Notes: generated by a model not told the origin, from the sequence alone. A DNA stretch of 64,000 nt from a virus (IMGVR_UViG_3300014204_000120:64001-128000); one strand, 5' to 3'; numbered from the stretch's first letter, positions 31,729 through 38,537 are shown. Made by a program: numbers and translations.

Positions 31729-31742
31729 AAAGGAGTTATTTG

Positions 31743-32852
31743 ATGTCTTTATCATATGATGAAATGAAGTTGAAGTTAATTCAGGCGTGTGATTCTTATT
31801 ATAATAAATCATTTTCTTTTATAACAGATAAAGAATTTGATGACCTTAAAGATGCGTTTAAAGAACAATATCCAGATGATCCGTTTTTAAAAACCATTGG
31901 TGCTCCTGTTCCTGAAGCTTCTGATTGGTCTAAAGTAAAACATAGTATTCCTATGTGTTCGTGTAATAAGGTTAAAACTGTTGATGAATTTATAGATTGG
32001 TGTGCTTCTAATCGTTTTGATGCAGATACAGCTTTAATTACATCAGAAAAGTTAGATGGAATGTCTTTATCAATAGATTATATTAATGGTAAATTAGTTA
32101 ATGGTATTACTCGTGGAGATGGTTTTATTGGTGAAGCAATTACACAAAATGTAATTAAAATGCAAAATGTTAAAGTTAATCTTGATAATAAGTATACTGG
32201 GAGTCTGCGTGGTGAAGTTCTATTAAATAAAAATGATTTTAAGGCTGTTAATTTAATATGTGAAGCTCGTGGTGAAAAAGGATTTCAGAACATACGTAAT
32301 GGAGCTTCTGGTATAGCTAAAAGATATGACTCTAAGTATTCAGAATATCTATATGTAAGATATTATTATGCTTCTGGTGATTTTAAAACCAAATCAGAAA
32401 TGTATCAATTTATTGAATCATTAGGTTTAAAAACATGTAAACATTTTTCTGGAAACTTTGAAACATCTAAAATAGTTTATAATGAATACGAACAATCTAT
32501 TAGAGCAGGATTGGATCATGCCATTGATGGATTAGTTATAGAACCAGATAATATTGAAACGCTTAATGATTTAGGTATGCTTAATGAGAATTTGAGAGGT
32601 CAAATTGCTTGGAAGTTTACTAGTGAAACAGCAATGACTAAGATTAAGGATATTGTCTGGCAGTTGGGTAACAGTTCGCGTATCACTCCTGTTGCAATTT
32701 TAGAGACAGTAGAATTAAATGGAGTTAATATTAGTCGTGCAACAATGCATAATTTAGATATATTTGAAAAGTTAAAGCCGTATAAAGGGGCTACTTGTTT
32801 AATATCAAGACGTGGTGATGTAATTCCTTTTATTGAAAAAGTTTATCCTTAA
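31743..32852 (+). CDS. ligA: NAD-dependent DNA ligase, N-terminal part (adenylation + OB domains)
   Basis: EKLDG (KxDG), TRGDG, RGEV, RNGASG, DGLVI, AWKF, ITPVA, RATMHN, RRGDVIP; stops before Zn finger. Confidence 0.93.
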   Translation: MSLSYDEMKLKLIQACDSYYNKSFSFITDKEFDDLKDAFKEQYPDDPFLKTIGAPVPEASDWSKVKHSIPMCSCNKVKTVDEFIDWCASNRFDADTALITSEKLDGMSLSIDYINGKLVNGITRGDGFIGEAITQNVIKMQNVKVNLDNKYTGSLRGEVLLNKNDFKAVNLICEARGEKGFQNIRNGASGIAKRYDSKYSEYLYVRYYYASGDFKTKSEMYQFIESLGLKTCKHFSGNFETSKIVYNEYEQSIRAGLDHAIDGLVIEPDNIETLNDLGMLNENLRGQIAWKFTSETAMTKIKDIVWQLGNSSRITPVAILETVELNGVNISRATMHNLDIFEKLKPYKGATCLISRRGDVIPFIEKVYP

Positions 32853-32872
32853 CATTTTAATAAGGAGTTTTG

Positions 32873-33325
32873 ATGCATTATAGAACTGTTAAAAGTATAG
32901 TTGAGAATGAGATAGATATGGCTTCTGAGTTTACATTATGTGGTATTATTATAGATGAGGATAGTTTTGAGGGGTTTTTAGAAAATGTTAAAGCTGAAAT
33001 ATTAGAAGAAATTCATGAGAAGTATGCATTTATTTCAACTAATAATATTTTATGTCATCCAGATGGTTTTGTATTGTTTGGTAGATTTATAAATGATTTG
33101 GATGAAAATAAAACTATTGCGCAGTCTAAGTCTGAAATGATGGATGATTTTTTAAAGTACGGATTATTTAATAACAACTTACAAGTTGTGAGTAAAGGAG
33201 TTGTTTTTTTATCAGGTATATTAGTGGATAATGATGATATTGAAGATGCAGAAGTAACTGAACAAAATGAATCACAAGTTAAAGGTATTGAAGAAGCAAT
33301 TAAAAAAGAAAGAAGTGAATTATGA
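32873..33325 (+). CDS. Acidic hypothetical protein
   Basis: ORF with AAGGAG RBS. Confidence 0.7.
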   Translation: MHYRTVKSIVENEIDMASEFTLCGIIIDEDSFEGFLENVKAEILEEIHEKYAFISTNNILCHPDGFVLFGRFINDLDENKTIAQSKSEMMDDFLKYGLFNNNLQVVSKGVVFLSGILVDNDDIEDAEVTEQNESQVKGIEEAIKKERSEL

Positions 33326-33873
33326 AGATTAGAAATGGATTTGTAAGTAACAGTTCTTCAAGTTCATTTATTGTTTATTTTGAAAAGCTTCCTGAAAATG
33401 TAGATGAACTTAAAAAAATGTTGTTTGGCGATAGAAAAGAATATCATTCACCATATAGCGAAGGTTTTTGGTCAACAGATCAAATAGCTGAAATTGTATG
33501 GAATGATATGCAAGAAAATAAAAATGCTACTGTTAAAGAAATTGTAGAAGATATTAAATCAGGTCATCCAGTAAATGATCCTATAGTTGAATCTATTATA
33601 GGTCAATATAATAAAATGCCGGATTACTTTAGTTATAAAAAACCAGGAACAGATGAAAAGACACCTTGGAATGAAAGATATGATAATGATACTTATGAAA
33701 AAGCATTAGATGAATATTTAAAACCTTATATAAACATGATTGATAAAGCTGCAGTTAAAGAAAAAAGAGCATTTAGATTTGAATATAGTGATAATGATGG
33801 CGAATTATATTCTGCAATGGAACACGGTAATTTGTTTGATAAAGTTAAACATCAAAAAATTTCACATCATTGA
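33322..33873 (+). CDS. MKIRxGFVSNSSSSSF-motif protein 1
   Basis: N-terminus MKIRNGFVSNSSSSSF. Confidence 0.85.
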   Translation: MKIRNGFVSNSSSSSFIVYFEKLPENVDELKKMLFGDRKEYHSPYSEGFWSTDQIAEIVWNDMQENKNATVKEIVEDIKSGHPVNDPIVESIIGQYNKMPDYFSYKKPGTDEKTPWNERYDNDTYEKALDEYLKPYINMIDKAAVKEKRAFRFEYSDNDGELYSAMEHGNLFDKVKHQKISHH

Positions 33874-33885
33874 AAGAAAAAAGTA

Positions 33886-34947
33886 ATGATTAAAAAGTAT
33901 CGCTCACCAGAATATAACTATAACTTTAATACGGAAACAGGCTTCTTTGTTAGATGGGGTAAAACATTAGAAGAAGATCCTCGTTTTTCCCCGTTCGGTC
34001 CTGAAATATTAGATCTAGAAATTAGTATTAATGGGTGTCCAAACAAATGCCCAATGTGTTATAAAGATAATACTAATAAACTTCCTACTAATATGTCATT
34101 TGAAACATTTAAATTAATATTAGATAAAATGCCTGATACATTAACTCAAATAGCTTTTGGAATTACTGGTATTCAAACAAATCCAGATTTTATTAAAATG
34201 TTAAAATATACTAAAGAAAAAGGAATTATACCTAATTTTACATTGTCAGGAATCGATTTAACAGATGAAATAGCTAAAGAAGTAGTTAATTATATTGGAG
34301 CTTGTGCTGTGTCAGCTTATGAAAGTAATAAAAATATATGTTATAATACAGTTAAGAAATTTACGGATTTGGGTATTAAACAAACAAACATTCATTTATT
34401 CACATCAAAAGAATCTAAAGATTTTGTATACGAAGTATTAAATGATACATTAATAGATGAAAGATTAAAAAATCTTAATGCTGTTGTTTTGTTAAAATGT
34501 AAACCTAAGGGTAGAGCTGCTAATAATTTTCATGTATTAACTACAAATGAATATAATGATTTGGTTAATTTTTGTTTGAAAAATAATATTAGATATGGAT
34601 TTGATTCTTGCTCAACCCCAGATTTTGAAAATGCTATTGCGATTAATAAAGAGATGTCATTAAAACAGAAGTCTGATTTATTAATGATGTCAGAAAGTTG
34701 TGAGAGTTTTGGGTTGTTTTCATCGTATATAGATGTTTATGGAAATTATTATCCGTGTAGTTTTGCTACAGGTGAAGGTGAATGGATAGAAGGATTGTCT
34801 GTTATAAATTGTAATAACTTTTTAAAAGATATATGGTTTAATGAAAAAGTTAATAAATATAGAAATATATCATTAAATACTTGTTATAAAAGCGGTTGTA
34901 GAAAATGTTTAATATTTGATATTAATCCTAAAGATTATGAAATTTAA
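33886..34947 (+). CDS. Radical SAM protein with C-terminal SPASM/Twitch-like domain
   Basis: CPNKCPMC; SCES...YIDVYGNYYPCSF...CRKC. Confidence 0.9.
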   Translation: MIKKYRSPEYNYNFNTETGFFVRWGKTLEEDPRFSPFGPEILDLEISINGCPNKCPMCYKDNTNKLPTNMSFETFKLILDKMPDTLTQIAFGITGIQTNPDFIKMLKYTKEKGIIPNFTLSGIDLTDEIAKEVVNYIGACAVSAYESNKNICYNTVKKFTDLGIKQTNIHLFTSKESKDFVYEVLNDTLIDERLKNLNAVVLLKCKPKGRAANNFHVLTTNEYNDLVNFCLKNNIRYGFDSCSTPDFENAIAINKEMSLKQKSDLLMMSESCESFGLFSSYIDVYGNYYPCSFATGEGEWIEGLSVINCNNFLKDIWFNEKVNKYRNISLNTCYKSGCRKCLIFDINPKDYEI

Positions 34948-34955
34948 GGAACAAT

Positions 34956-35168
34956 ATGAAATCGTCTGAGTTATTTGATAAAGCTTCAAAGATTATTCAA
35001 ATGAAGATAGATTCAATTACTCTTAGTAATCAGGCTATAGTTGATGCTCAAACATTAAAACAAGAAGTTGAAAGTAATAAAAATTATTATTTAGAATTCA
35101 TGGAAGCTAAAGATCTTAATGAAGTTTTAACTGGGCTTAATCACGTTATACCAAAGGGGTCATTATGA
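34956..35168 (+). CDS. Hypothetical protein
   Basis: 70 aa ORF with AAGGA RBS. Confidence 0.6.
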   Translation: MKSSELFDKASKIIQMKIDSITLSNQAIVDAQTLKQEVESNKNYYLEFMEAKDLNEVLTGLNHVIPKGSL

Positions 35169-35470
35169 AGATTAGAAAAGGATTTGTAAGTAATAGTTCT
35201 AGTTCCAGTTTTATTATAATGCAGAAAAGAATGGATTTATCACAAACTGAATTAGATAAACGTAATAAAAAAATATTATTGGATTATGGTATAGATAAAA
35301 GTGATATTAAAGATACTTTAAAAGAATATGAAAAAAATCAACTTATACTAATTTATACTTCAGTAGATCAAAATGCTTTTTCAGGTGAAGGAGAGTCTCC
35401 TGATTCAATTATATATAAGTTAATGGAAAAATTAAACATTAAGGATATTACAATAAAAATAGAAGATTAG
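35165..35470 (+). CDS. MKIRxGFVSNSSSSSF-motif protein 2
   Basis: MKIRKGFVSNSSSSSF. Confidence 0.85.
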   Translation: MKIRKGFVSNSSSSSFIIMQKRMDLSQTELDKRNKKILLDYGIDKSDIKDTLKEYEKNQLILIYTSVDQNAFSGEGESPDSIIYKLMEKLNIKDITIKIED

Positions 35471-35478
35471 GAGAAAAT

Positions 35479-35988
35479 ATGAAAATTAGAAAAGGATTTG
35501 TTAGTAATTCAAGTAGTTCATCTTATATTATTACATTAGATAAGAATAAAGCAGATTTTTTAGCAGATATGGTTACAGCTTATGAATATGGAGCATTTAA
35601 TGTAAACTATATTGTTGAAAATATAAAAAAGACAATTAAGGAATGCGAAGAACCAGATCAAGTAAGTATTTCTTTTATGGCAGAACATATGCAAAATCGT
35701 ATTAATGATTTAAAGTTATTGTTAGAAAAAATATACGATTTAACTAAAATTGAAGACGAAGATAAGAATAGTAGATATTATGTGTGTAATACTTCGGTTA
35801 TAGAATTGTTATTAAACGAATATTATAATGTGAAAATTGAAGAATTAACTAAGATTATTAATGTTTCTGGTTGGACCCCTATGCATAATAGTTATAATGA
35901 TATGCCAGAAATATTGAAGGATATTATTATTTGGTATACATTTGAAGATCCTAAGGTTATTTTAAAAACTAAACAAATAGAAGAATAA
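35479..35988 (+). CDS. MKIRxGFVSNSSSSSF-motif protein 3
   Basis: MKIRKGFVSNSSSSSY. Confidence 0.85.
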   Translation: MKIRKGFVSNSSSSSYIITLDKNKADFLADMVTAYEYGAFNVNYIVENIKKTIKECEEPDQVSISFMAEHMQNRINDLKLLLEKIYDLTKIEDEDKNSRYYVCNTSVIELLLNEYYNVKIEELTKIINVSGWTPMHNSYNDMPEILKDIIIWYTFEDPKVILKTKQIEE

Positions 35989-35997
35989 GGAGAAAAT

Positions 35998-36345
35998 ATG
36001 AAAATTAGAAATGGGTTTGTAAGTAATAGTAGTTCTAGTTCTTTTATTGTTGCTGTAAAAAAGAATACTAAAGTAAAATTTACTGGTGAAATTGATTTAA
36101 AATCGTTAGCAGACTATGTTTGTGAAGATGAAGACGATTTAATAAAAGCACTTGCAGAGATAGATAATGATGATAAAAAGTTGTTTACTAAATGTTTGAA
36201 ATTGATTGAAGAAGGTAATACAATTTTATTTGGTTCATTTGATGATCAATCCGGTGATACTATAGAAGGAGCTATATGTGAGTGTGGTATAGATAGAAAA
36301 AATAATCCACATGTAACAGTTATTGAAAACGAAGCAGGATACTAA
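35998..36345 (+). CDS. MKIRxGFVSNSSSSSF-motif protein 4
   Basis: MKIRNGFVSNSSSSSF. Confidence 0.85.
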   Translation: MKIRNGFVSNSSSSSFIVAVKKNTKVKFTGEIDLKSLADYVCEDEDDLIKALAEIDNDDKKLFTKCLKLIEEGNTILFGSFDDQSGDTIEGAICECGIDRKNNPHVTVIENEAGY

Positions 36346-36354
36346 GGAGGAAGT

Positions 36355-36753
36355 ATGAAAGTTCGTTTAGGATTTGTAAGTAATAGCAGCTCCAGTTCGT
36401 TTGTATTAGTTGCAGATAAAAAGGATTTTGATGAAGCAATAGTAAAATTACATCCATCAATACAACATGTAATTGGTAGAACTAAAACTGTAAATTTTAA
36501 TGGTAAAGATATTATATGCATTTTAGATCATGAATCAACAGAAGATGTTTGTTTTCAGGATATTTTTGAAGATTATGAAAGTCATAAATTTATAAATCAT
36601 GAAGGAAAAGAAGTTGTATTAACTGAAGAAGAAATGGACGATTGGGATACTATTGAAGGTATAGTATATATGCGTGAAAGCGCTTTGAGAATTTTAAGTG
36701 ATAAAATTAAAAAAATGAAAAAAGATTGTGTTTTTGAAAGTCTTTCTTGTTAA
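36355..36753 (+). CDS. MKIRxGFVSNSSSSSF-motif protein 5
   Basis: MKVRLGFVSNSSSSSF. Confidence 0.85.
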   Translation: MKVRLGFVSNSSSSSFVLVADKKDFDEAIVKLHPSIQHVIGRTKTVNFNGKDIICILDHESTEDVCFQDIFEDYESHKFINHEGKEVVLTEEEMDDWDTIEGIVYMRESALRILSDKIKKMKKDCVFESLSC

Positions 36754-36764
36754 TTGAGAATATT

Positions 36765-37208
36765 ATGAAGATCAGAAAAGGATTTGTAAGTAATAGTTCA
36801 ACTAGTTCATTTTTAATATATGGAATTGCAATTGATAGTGAAGATAGAGATGTTATACTTATAAATGAAATTAAAAAACTGAAAACAATTGAAGAATTTA
36901 AATCAGTTTATAAGTATACAGATGAAGAAATATACAATATAATTCACCAAGAAAATCAAACTGTTGATCAAATTATTGAAAAACTTACTGAAGAATATGA
37001 AGATGATTGGGAAGATCTAAAATCTGATAGTAGTGATTTATTTTTTGGTACTTCTGATGTAGGTTATTATATTGGAAAATCACCACAGAGTGCGCCAAAT
37101 GATATAACTTTTGCTGATTGGAAAAAACAAATTGAAGAAGAAACCAGTGAACTTTTAGGTAAAAAAGTTAAATGTAGTTGGATTGAAGAGGCATGGTCTG
37201 ATGGATAA
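36765..37208 (+). CDS. MKIRxGFVSNSSSSSF-motif protein 6
   Basis: MKIRKGFVSNSSTSSF; start moved to ATG 36765. Confidence 0.85.
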   Translation: MKIRKGFVSNSSTSSFLIYGIAIDSEDRDVILINEIKKLKTIEEFKSVYKYTDEEIYNIIHQENQTVDQIIEKLTEEYEDDWEDLKSDSSDLFFGTSDVGYYIGKSPQSAPNDITFADWKKQIEEETSELLGKKVKCSWIEEAWSDG

Positions 37209-37431
37209 TAAAAAAATCAAACAAGTATTAGTTGATGGTAGAGGTTTTATTTATGCTGAAGGTGATATATCTTCTGGTATATCTCCTTGTAAGTTAGAGT
37301 GGTTTGAAGTTAATGGCGAAATGGCTATTGTTAAATGGATAAAAGCTACTTATCCTGATGGAACTGTAAAAGAATTTAATGGAAAATATATAATTGAAGT
37401 TGAATACTATCCATTGAAAGCGAAGGAGTAA
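37201..37431 (+). CDS. Hypothetical protein
   Basis: ORF coupled to neighbours; start moved to ATG 37201. Confidence 0.6.
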   Translation: MDNKKIKQVLVDGRGFIYAEGDISSGISPCKLEWFEVNGEMAIVKWIKATYPDGTVKEFNGKYIIEVEYYPLKAKE

Positions 37432-37434
37432 TAG

Positions 37435-38235
37435 ATGAATAAGGAATATTTCACTCCACCATTGAATTGCCCTGTATGTAATTGTGAAACTAAACGAGAT
37501 GGAGTTTATTTAATTTGTCCTAATCCTGAATGTTCTGGTGGAAAAATCGGGGATTTGATTAAATGGATTAAAAAGCTTGATTTAAAAGGCGTTGCAGAAG
37601 CTACCTTAGAAAAACTATATAACGCTGAATTAGTGGCAACCCCAGCAGACCTTTATAAATTAAAACCAGAATTAATTGAAAACTTAGAAGGTTTTGGTTC
37701 CAGTTCAGCTAATAAGATTGTTGAAACATTAAATGAAAAGAAAGATATATCGTTTGGTGAGTTTATAGGTGGATTGAATATACCTAATGTTAGTCAAAAA
37801 ACAGCCGAATTGTTAGAACGTAATGGATATGATACCATAAATAAACTATTAGAATCAAAGTCTATTGATTTATCTAATATTAAAGGTATTGGTGAAACTA
37901 CGGCAAATGATATAATTAATGGCATTTCAAAGAAGAAAGATGTTATATTACAATTATTGAATGTTGGTATTAAGATAAAGGAGAAAGTTAAAATGACAAA
38001 GTCACATCCATTGACAGGGAAAAAGGTAGTTTTTACTGGTGCTTTGAATATTAAAAGAAACGAAGCACAGAAAATGGTAATGGAAGTTGGTGGAGAGTGC
38101 CCGTCGTCTTTAAGTAAGGATACTGATTTTCTTGTTATGGCAGATCCAAATTCTGGTTCTTCTAAGGCTGTTAAGGCACAATCATATGGAACAAAAGTTC
38201 TTAGTGAAGATCAATTTATGGAATTGTTTGAATGA
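37435..38235 (+). CDS. ligA: NAD-dependent DNA ligase, C-terminal part (Zn finger, HhH, BRCT)
   Basis: CPVC...CPNPEC, LEGFG, IKGIG HhH motifs, GKKVVFTGAL...SSKAVKA BRCT; own AAGGAG RBS. Confidence 0.92.
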   Translation: MNKEYFTPPLNCPVCNCETKRDGVYLICPNPECSGGKIGDLIKWIKKLDLKGVAEATLEKLYNAELVATPADLYKLKPELIENLEGFGSSSANKIVETLNEKKDISFGEFIGGLNIPNVSQKTAELLERNGYDTINKLLESKSIDLSNIKGIGETTANDIINGISKKKDVILQLLNVGIKIKEKVKMTKSHPLTGKKVVFTGALNIKRNEAQKMVMEVGGECPSSLSKDTDFLVMADPNSGSSKAVKAQSYGTKVLSEDQFMELFE

Positions 38236-38537
38236 ATAGATTAGAATCCGTAGATCAAATACCAAATTTAGGTATTGTTGTTATCTTAGTACAAGTTGAG
38301 TCTAGAACTCCTTGTAAAAAATTTTTAAATGAAATGAACGCTTGTATTAGTGAATTATTAAAAGATGTTAATGCGACTTATTATACTTTAGAATTAACTA
38401 ATGTCATAAAAGAATCATTAGGAGTACATTATATACCAACAGTTATAGTTTATAAGGATGGAAAAGAAACTAAAAGGTTTAATGGTCATTATTGGAGTAA
38501 ATTTCAAATTGCTGGATATATTCGGGAAGGATTATGA
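38232..38537 (+). CDS. Thioredoxin-like protein, degenerate active site
   Basis: SRTPCK in place of WCxxC; GVHYIPTVIVYKDG. Confidence 0.65.
   Translation: MNRLESVDQIPNLGIVVILVQVESRTPCKKFLNEMNACISELLKDVNATYYTLELTNVIKESLGVHYIPTVIVYKDGKETKRFNGHYWSKFQIAGYIREGL

Follow-up and report, generated by a model that had tools for sequence, protein, structure and literature searches.

A conserved N-terminal peptide on variable phage proteins is genomically coupled to a radical SAM enzyme and may be its substrate

The stretch of DNA analysed here, called the window below, comprises 64,000 nucleotides from a virus (IMGVR_UViG_3300014204_000120:64001-128000). Between positions 33322 and 37208 it carries a gene for a radical S-adenosylmethionine (SAM) enzyme together with six genes whose products share a 16-residue N-terminal peptide, which we refer to as the tag. 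The seven genes are tightly packed and all lie on the + strand, with the tagged open reading frames (ORFs) starting at 33322, 35165, 35479, 35998, 36355 and 36765.

33322..33873, + strand: tagged protein 1, 183 residues, phrog_7397
33886..34947, + strand: radical SAM enzyme, 353 residues, Cx3Cx2C at C51/C55/C58, phrog_7293
35165..35470, + strand: tagged protein 2, 101 residues, singleton body
35479..35988, + strand: tagged protein 3, 169 residues, tag ending in Y16
35998..36345, + strand: tagged protein 4, 115 residues, recurrent body family
36355..36753, + strand: tagged protein 5, 132 residues, MKVRL... start, singleton body
36765..37208, + strand: tagged protein 6, 147 residues from the ATG at 36765, tag with T13

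All six proteins open with MK[IV]RxGFVSNSS[ST]SS[FY] followed by two hydrophobic residues, and the ORF translations thus bear out the initial annotation, which had described a 16-residue N-terminus common to six genes and running into a hydrophobic stretch. For tagged gene 6 a TTG at 36747 can also be read as a start, while starting from the ATG at 36765 puts the tag at residue 1, in agreement with the remaining five. A six-frame search of the window and of the whole 137,849-bp phage genome returned these same six tags only, and the pattern had 0 matches in 797 kb of shuffled related DNA. The Ser codons at positions 11-15 are a mixture of AGY and TCN, Arg4 is encoded by AGA or CGT, and the six 48-nt tag regions are identical pairwise at just 29-42 of 48 positions. 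This mixture of codons and the low nucleotide identity indicate that selection acts on the peptide and not on the DNA, as had been proposed at the outset.

Beyond the window, the tag was characterised in 452 distinct tagged proteins, with a median length of 136 residues (range 84-208). It always stands at the start of the protein, with Met at position 1 in 428 cases; alternative start codons explain most of the remaining 24. Residues K2, R4, G6, F7, V8 and F16 are each at least 95% conserved. The family of tagged protein 1 (family 1) is the most widespread, and among 120 of its homologues gathered by whole-length similarity the tag is unchanged in 116. A 30-column profile, in which conservation is confined to the tag columns, matched 24,907 representative proteins (clusters at 50% identity) among 1.84 billion at E <= 0.001, with the tag at residue 1 in about 139 of the best 150 matches. 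A few matches are tandem two-tag fusions or gene calls extended upstream. A tblastn search of the phage collection with a singleton tagged protein returned no match, the tag being masked by the low-complexity filter. Four proteins (P0242, P0244, P0245 and P0246) contain a second complete tag, including its Met, inside the protein; these may be true fusions, or may reflect stop-codon read-through in phages with another genetic code. The tag string was not found in the literature searched and topical searches likewise gave no description of it, in keeping with the initial statement that no characterised function was known for the motif.

The tag and the enzyme are genomically coupled, and the co-occurrence check proposed in the initial annotation held in both directions. 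We fetched 78 viral loci with a family-1 profile and 84 with an enzyme profile. In nearly all of the family-1 loci the tagged genes form arrays of 2-14, and an enzyme homologue (33-60% identity) is present in most; per phage, the number of tagged genes is six here and 1-14 elsewhere. Starting from the enzyme, tagged ORFs were found within 10 kb in 79/84 loci, or in 71/74 when the set was made non-redundant at 90% identity and tag variants were allowed. These ORFs are almost always on the same strand as the enzyme gene and many begin less than 400 nt past its stop codon. The enzyme clade itself is rare: among 2.9 million viral contigs it matched no more than 179 stretches. In the opposite direction, large contigs picked by a DNA pattern for the tag alone contained the enzyme in 11 of 15 cases. 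All five tag-anchored contigs that are at least 90% complete carry it, and the four large contigs without it are merely 26-40% complete. In the complete genome G002 the enzyme is present 50 kb from the tagged genes. Near-complete tag-bearing genomes therefore hold the enzyme in six of seven cases (these five and G002), the seventh being the complete genome G004. The sole tagged gene of G004 (L028:10001-10669) has ACG in place of ATG and departs from the family at otherwise invariant residues (EHG to ENG, ISHH to INKH); in this single case the sequence possibly records decay of a tagged gene without an enzyme partner.

When ORFs were clustered over about 160 loci, the tagged proteins and the enzyme were the only widely common families, and no shared protease, ribosomally synthesised and post-translationally modified peptide (RiPP) recognition element (RRE), exporter, peptidase or nucleoside triphosphatase (NTPase) was found across them. 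The third commonest family, a 335-residue protein, occurs in 24 loci (including L009:7590-8669) as 12 distinct sequences. Both components are carried by cultured T4-like phages of Klebsiella, Enterobacter, Cronobacter and Citrobacter; the enzyme is present in 172 records of cultured phages, compared with 166 for family 1, with the same host-genus profiles, and the pair recurs in hundreds of large phages. Across 185,579 prokaryotic species genomes the tag was found in only 17 loci, nearly all on viral-looking contigs of metagenome-assembled genomes. One contig of a Flagellimonas marina assembly (L167; NZ_JBHSCL010000010.1, 178,077 bp) matches T4-like genomes in size and bears two tagged genes at a distance of 3,950 nt, a spacing also seen in T4-like Klebsiella phages; it probably represents a phage within a bacterial assembly.

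The enzyme has the Cx3Cx2C motif of the radical SAM superfamily, with C51, C55 and C58 invariant across 21 homologues. The Pfam model Radical_SAM (PF04055) matches at 2.3e-6 and 28.3 bits, against a gathering threshold of 29.5, and most of the homologues carry a precomputed PF04055 assignment. In the same 21 homologues C242, C272 and C291 are also invariant and a C-terminal CxxC is usually present. The SPASM subfamily has seven Cys in the pattern CX9-15GX4C ... CX2CX5CX3C ... C, for two auxiliary [4Fe-4S] clusters. The tail cysteines of the phage enzyme do not form the CX2CX5CX3C part, and on sequence a Twitch domain with one cluster seems a better fit for the tail than a seven-Cys SPASM domain. 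The CxxxCxxC radical SAM assignment of the initial annotation thus stood, and its SPASM/Twitch-like tail appears closer to Twitch than to a full SPASM domain. An N-terminal extension of 45 residues is conserved. The best NCBIfam matches are to generic SPASM-type maturases, far under their own cut-offs. Among the PHROGs families the enzyme matches phrog_7293 (1.8e-79), annotated as of unknown function, and no functional name is attached to any of the 2047 clusters (90% identity) in its clade. A sequence search of the PDB with the enzyme profile gave spurious matches to PPR-repeat proteins and weak matches to SkfB (1e-3) and GDGT synthase over the cluster region. An apparent in-frame stop in the enzyme of locus L063 turned out to be its natural stop codon. 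In a 138,951-bp viral contig (G015:C1:43219-44944) the enzyme homologue is found in two pieces, corresponding to residues 2-96 and 93-336 and separated by about 740 nt; the gap may be an insertion (a mobile element or intron) or the gene may be broken.

Downstream of the tag the six proteins diverge. They are 101-183 residues long with isoelectric points (pI) of 4.2-5.1 and fall into different BLAST groups, and the 452 distinct proteins fall into 126 such groups. Body pI is below 5 in 76% of 440 tagged proteins, compared with 23% of other ORFs of similar size at the same loci. Alignment of the 14 largest body groups with hhalign gave probabilities of 20% or less. The description of the bodies as acidic and apparently unrelated can be kept. 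Tagged protein 1 matches phrog_7397 over its full length (1.6e-16), again a family annotated as of unknown function; the other five match it only through residues 1-24, or weakly. None of the 326 metagenomic homologues of family 1 has a Pfam domain. The conserved parts of this family are the tag and a C-terminal block, FxYSDNDG...MEHGxLF...H..ISHH, with D157, E167, H168 and H183 as invariant acidic and His residues. The body of tagged protein 3 has one relative in our sample, whereas the family of tagged protein 4 counts 19 distinct members, which conserve GSxxDDSGD...SGGxY at the C-terminus, and that of tagged protein 6 has 30, of the F[CL]IYG[IA] type. Searches of Pfam, NCBIfam and PADLOC yielded no credible family for any tagged protein. 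A PqqD match in the protein encoded at 36765 (E 0.0018, below cut-off) and PADLOC matches of the tagged proteins (E about 0.003) were dismissed as chance. A further tagged family, with 31 distinct members at loci including L016:9505-10014, L057:13238-13723 and L093:7486-9087, has a Zn-ribbon-like CxxC ... C.NGH.FC ... CPxC arrangement just after the tag, showing that the tagged proteins are not all simple acidic ones.

AlphaFold models were obtained for the proteins encoded at 33322 and 35998, with a mean predicted local distance difference test score (pLDDT) of 90 and 80, respectively. In the first, residues 1-10 all score below 50 (mean 43), and in the second they average 50. The order of secondary-structure elements differs between the two models. 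Foldseek on the PDB and VIA-align on 48,161 chains matched neither of them (best Z 3.3 and 4.1), a result that falls short of establishing new folds; in the ESM Atlas the folds similar to the 33322 model belong to viral hypothetical proteins only. The initial annotation had considered that all six proteins might share one fold in which the tag is simply a structural beta-hairpin. The low hhalign probabilities, the differing element orders and the low confidence of residues 1-10 speak otherwise, with a distant common core still conceivable.

Variation in the tag is also matched to the genome in which it occurs. Rare tag variants are uniform across the paralogues within a genome: four SFVAN tags adjoin one enzyme, and three GHVSN tags and one CHVSN tag adjoin another, with diverged codons. 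Other genomes have sets of GFVTN tags or of DF[VI]TN tags, the latter with K4 (genome-specific variants are found at L084:12064-14147, L090:9496-12229, L232, L217, L277, L041, L061, L062 and L067). In a tree of 125 enzymes, those beside tags with Thr at position 9 (GFVTN and DFxTN) form a single long-branch clade with a support of 100 in the Shimodaira-Hasegawa-like approximate likelihood ratio test (SH-aLRT), and the GFVTN and DFxTN sub-clades are supported at 99 and 96. The Thr9 variants thus follow the enzyme lineage, in a way that is suggestive rather than statistical.

The surroundings of the seven genes add one further feature. An NAD-dependent DNA ligase is split here into two intact ORFs, and the cassette of which the seven genes are part (32870-37431; ten genes, 4.6 kb) fills precisely the gap between them. 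These flanking genes and the three untagged ORFs of the cassette are as follows.

31740..32852, + strand: DNA ligase N-terminal half, left boundary; adenylation and OB domains (PF01653 8e-42, PF03120 2e-19)
32870..33325, + strand: 5'-most ORF of the insert, untagged and acidic, 151 residues
34956..35168, + strand: untagged ORF after the enzyme gene and before tagged gene 2, 70 residues
37183..37431, + strand: untagged ORF at the 3' edge of the insert, 82 residues
37435..38235, + strand: DNA ligase C-terminal half, right boundary; Cys-rich start, helix-hairpin-helix and BRCT domains (HHH_5 8e-14, BRCT 9e-14)

The start of tagged gene 2 overlaps the stop of the 34956..35168 ORF in an ATGA-type arrangement. 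The three untagged ORFs gave no family match and have no homologue in the roughly 160 related loci, and on this basis they are not conserved parts of the system; that they are members of it at all seems doubtful from their sequences. A full-length ligase adjoins the cassette in four other loci (L056, L101, L102 and L088), and an ORF in L057 matches the C-terminal half only. Directly after the C-terminal half in the window, at 38232-38537 and close to this Fe-S enzyme cassette, is a thioredoxin-like gene (PF00085, 3.7e-5). A megablast search of cultured phages with the cassette returned no match and the ligase half is at most 34% identical to any from those phages, so by sequence the phage appears to be without a close cultured relative. 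In this AT-rich DNA, a scan for promoters and terminators returned 59 sites where 60 were expected and was thus uninformative.

The computational tests put forward with the initial annotation all came out favourably. Its central proposal, one maturase that modifies or is recruited by a common tag on variable client proteins, appears to be supported by these computations, which accommodate modification and recruitment alike. The reading we favour is a two-component phage system in which the radical SAM enzyme takes hold of the exposed tag and alters it chemically; belief and doubt in this are about evenly balanced. In such a system a dedicated enzyme of the SPASM/Twitch branch would recognise MK[ITV]Rx-GFVSN-SSSSS-F on small, mostly acidic and otherwise unrelated proteins. 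Tag residues 1 to 10-12 would be free of the folded body, and the free end would enter the active site, where SAM would be cleaved reductively and a hydrogen atom abstracted, leaving a covalent change. The most likely site of modification would be Ser9-Asn10-Ser11..15, and the candidate chemistries are Ser oxidation, epimerisation at C-alpha and cross-linking with either Phe7 or Phe16. In the fashion of a RiPP maturase, a single enzyme would mature all of the tagged proteins of a phage. The clients, judged by gene type and context, would probably be early accessory effectors acting in host takeover or counter-defence. Physical binding, covalent modification, its site and the biological role are what we infer here. 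The near-total invariance of the five Ser residues and Asn10, the fixed distance to Met1 and the clade-specific switch between Ser9 and Thr9 fit an active-site substrate better than a docking or sorting signal. We also considered a glycyl-radical mechanism. The Arg lies at -2 from the Gly instead of -3 as in the R-V-x-G-[YF] motif of glycyl-radical domains, Gly6 is replaced by D, S, C, K or A in variants, and the activase model NrdG covers just 87 residues round the cluster motif at 23.5 bits, against a cut-off of 151.7. The wrong Arg spacing and the replaceable Gly6 exclude such a mechanism.

The structure of the complex of the enzyme with a tagged protein was predicted, with SAM and two clusters included, and gave a score of 0.44, compared with 0.00 for the best of three controls. 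The mark that we applied is reached by 58/80 solved complexes and by 2/110 mismatched pairs, and among these only 7 of the 80 solved complexes and both of the passing mismatches reach it at 0.60 or under. The enzyme-client prediction reached the mark, with separate runs sharing at least 46% of contacts and a partner pLDDT of at least 69, but did so weakly, and its support for binding is weak accordingly. This weakness aside, several observations weigh against tag modification by the enzyme. The SPASM models score below their cut-offs (PF13186 18.9 against 21.5 bits, TIGR04085 19.2 against 27), and Pfam and NCBIfam revealed no recognisable RRE and no PqqD match in the enzyme. The covariation of tag and enzyme amounts to one or two evolutionary events only. 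Finally, docking without any chemistry on the tag would give an identical genomic pattern. It is fairly unlikely, in our estimation, that the tag is a docking handle of this kind, which merely binds the enzyme while the bodies are modified elsewhere or bring in host molecules in an F-box-like manner. This would account for the linkage, for the uniformity of tags within genomes, for the covariation with the enzyme and for the very large diversity of bodies, and the weak complex score suits docking as well as catalysis. Docking motifs, however, usually tolerate conservative changes, whereas the five Ser, Asn10 and the distance to Met1 are fixed in thousands of proteins, and the bodies have no conserved second site.

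Other doubts concern whether the enzyme has anything to do with the tag. Adjacency is not universal: the enzyme gene of T4-like phages and of some jumbo phages is 20-50 kb away from the tagged genes (about 20 kb, in the same genome, in Klebsiella phage RCIP0008), and G004, a complete 224.8-kb viral genome, has a tagged gene and no enzyme. Both facts favour a tag that works independently of the enzyme, in capsid sorting, localisation, controlled degradation or co-assembly of paralogues through the N-terminal strand, with the enzyme a mere frequent neighbour, and the T4 internal proteins show that conserved N-terminal signals do exist on hypervariable phage proteins. We regard this as unlikely: linkage in 71/74 loci stands against an enzyme clade with so few occurrences among viral contigs, six of the seven near-complete genomes have the enzyme, Thr9 tags pair with one enzyme clade, sorting signals are normally far more degenerate than the tag, and the tagged gene of the sole enzyme-less genome has no ATG start. 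A structural role for the peptide is suggested by the 33322 model, in which tag residues 13-19 form the first strand, so that conservation may be partly structural. Taken further, the tagged proteins could be a single divergent fold family in which the tag supplies an N-terminal strand and loop that act in catalysis or bind metal, perhaps with self-processing, and the enzyme works in the same pathway. The invariant D157, E167, H168 and H183 of family 1 do resemble an active or metal site, and several body families show a strand followed by an S/G-D-x-D/S-G loop. It is nevertheless quite improbable given the hhalign probabilities of 20% or less between body families, the element order that differs between the two models, the spread in size from 84 to 208 residues with Zn-ribbon-like CxxC proteins included, and the failure of both models to place residues 1-10, the most invariant part. 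The tags all stand right where their genes begin, in densely packed arrays, and this might also point to conservation of the nucleic acid, either as a translation-initiation or regulatory RNA element or as a recombination site for cassette shuffling. That explanation is barely credible and we reject it on the grounds of codon variation, with Ser (AGY/TCN) and Arg (AGA/CGT) codons both differing and paralogue pairs alike at only 26-42 of 48 nucleotides; moreover, phages that differ widely in base composition retain the peptide.

Within the literature searched, the pair of enzyme and tag is probably an undescribed protein-modification system. The broader claim, that a covalent mark placed on the tag by radical SAM chemistry is the general maturation step of a phage accessory repertoire of about 25,000 clusters (50% identity) and more than 100 body types, we consider possible, at a little short of an even chance. 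If true, it would amount to a virus-wide enzymatic protein-tagging chemistry without a described counterpart, and to a new post-translational modification of whole proteins that is confined to large phages and has unusually diverse clients. It would also give a function to phrog_7293, to phrog_7397 and to many tagged relatives, and might expose a hidden layer of control over early and accessory phage proteins. A 16-residue tag served by a single dedicated enzyme would be an attractive handle for protein engineering, as a portable tool for site-specific modification. Both families are present in cultured phages, including candidates for therapy, and the proposal is therefore directly testable at the bench.

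Short N-terminal peptides on variable phage proteins have a precedent in the internal proteins of T4, whose capsid-targeting sequences are cleaved by the prohead protease at (L/I)xE. As in the present case, the peptide is conserved and sits on hypervariable, small, arrayed phage proteins; the T4 consensus is different and much more degenerate, and has no radical SAM partner. A terminal peptide that does have such a partner is that of the FxSxx-COOH/FxsB system, reportedly the work of Haft and Basu in 2011. There, variable proteins with a terminal F-x-S-x-x are tied to a radical SAM/SPASM gene in conflict-system contexts (Kaur et al. 2020, PMC7159879). The two systems have in common a short conserved terminal peptide on variable proteins, and the phage tag contains F-V-S-N-S. 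They differ in that the FxsA motif is C-terminal and is released by a peptidase in VMAP/AP-ATPase ternary systems, whereas the phage tag is N-terminal. No NCBIfam model of FxsB matches the enzyme and no linked peptidase or NTPase is seen in the roughly 160 loci.

Enzymes of the SPASM/Twitch group commonly act on co-encoded peptides and sometimes on whole proteins, as the anaerobic sulfatase-maturating enzyme (anSME) does on sulfatases. A single anSME or AtsB enzyme, equipped with auxiliary clusters, serves many client proteins by modifying a Ser or Cys that belongs to a short motif close to their N-termini, much as we propose here. The tag lacks the sulfatase motif, (C/S)-x-(P/A)-x-R, however, and the clients have no sulfatase domain. 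The phage enzyme has about four conserved auxiliary Cys as opposed to a seven-Cys SPASM domain, and the NCBIfam models for anSME gave no match to it at E <= 0.1. A co-encoded substrate of protein size is found in Methanococcus voltae, where the SPASM radical SAM enzyme CrpC installs thioether cross-links on the protein CrpA (PMC13692751). This is an experimental demonstration that a radical SAM enzyme of RiPP type can act on such a substrate (PMC13692751), although CrpA is Cys-rich and CrpC has an RRE and two SPASM clusters, whereas the phage tag is without Cys and its enzyme without an RRE.

The closest parallels in organisation are the RiPP maturases, namely those of the sactipeptides and ranthipeptides, StrB of streptide, PqqE with PqqA and MftC with MftA, in which one enzyme likewise serves several precursors that share a leader. 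In both cases a gene of the SPASM/Twitch branch lies in an operon with co-oriented, otherwise hypervariable genes that share an N-terminal peptide. The phage clients differ in being folded proteins of 84-208 residues, compared with 20-60 for RiPP precursors. Their conserved piece is 16 residues long, nearly invariant, fixed at residue 1, in no need of Cys, and viral. Across the roughly 160 loci the phage system has no RRE or PqqD domain, leader protease or exporter, which sets it apart from the RiPP systems with an RRE, and it may still work in a similar manner. In logic it resembles the prochlorosin system, in which one enzyme serves many substrates.

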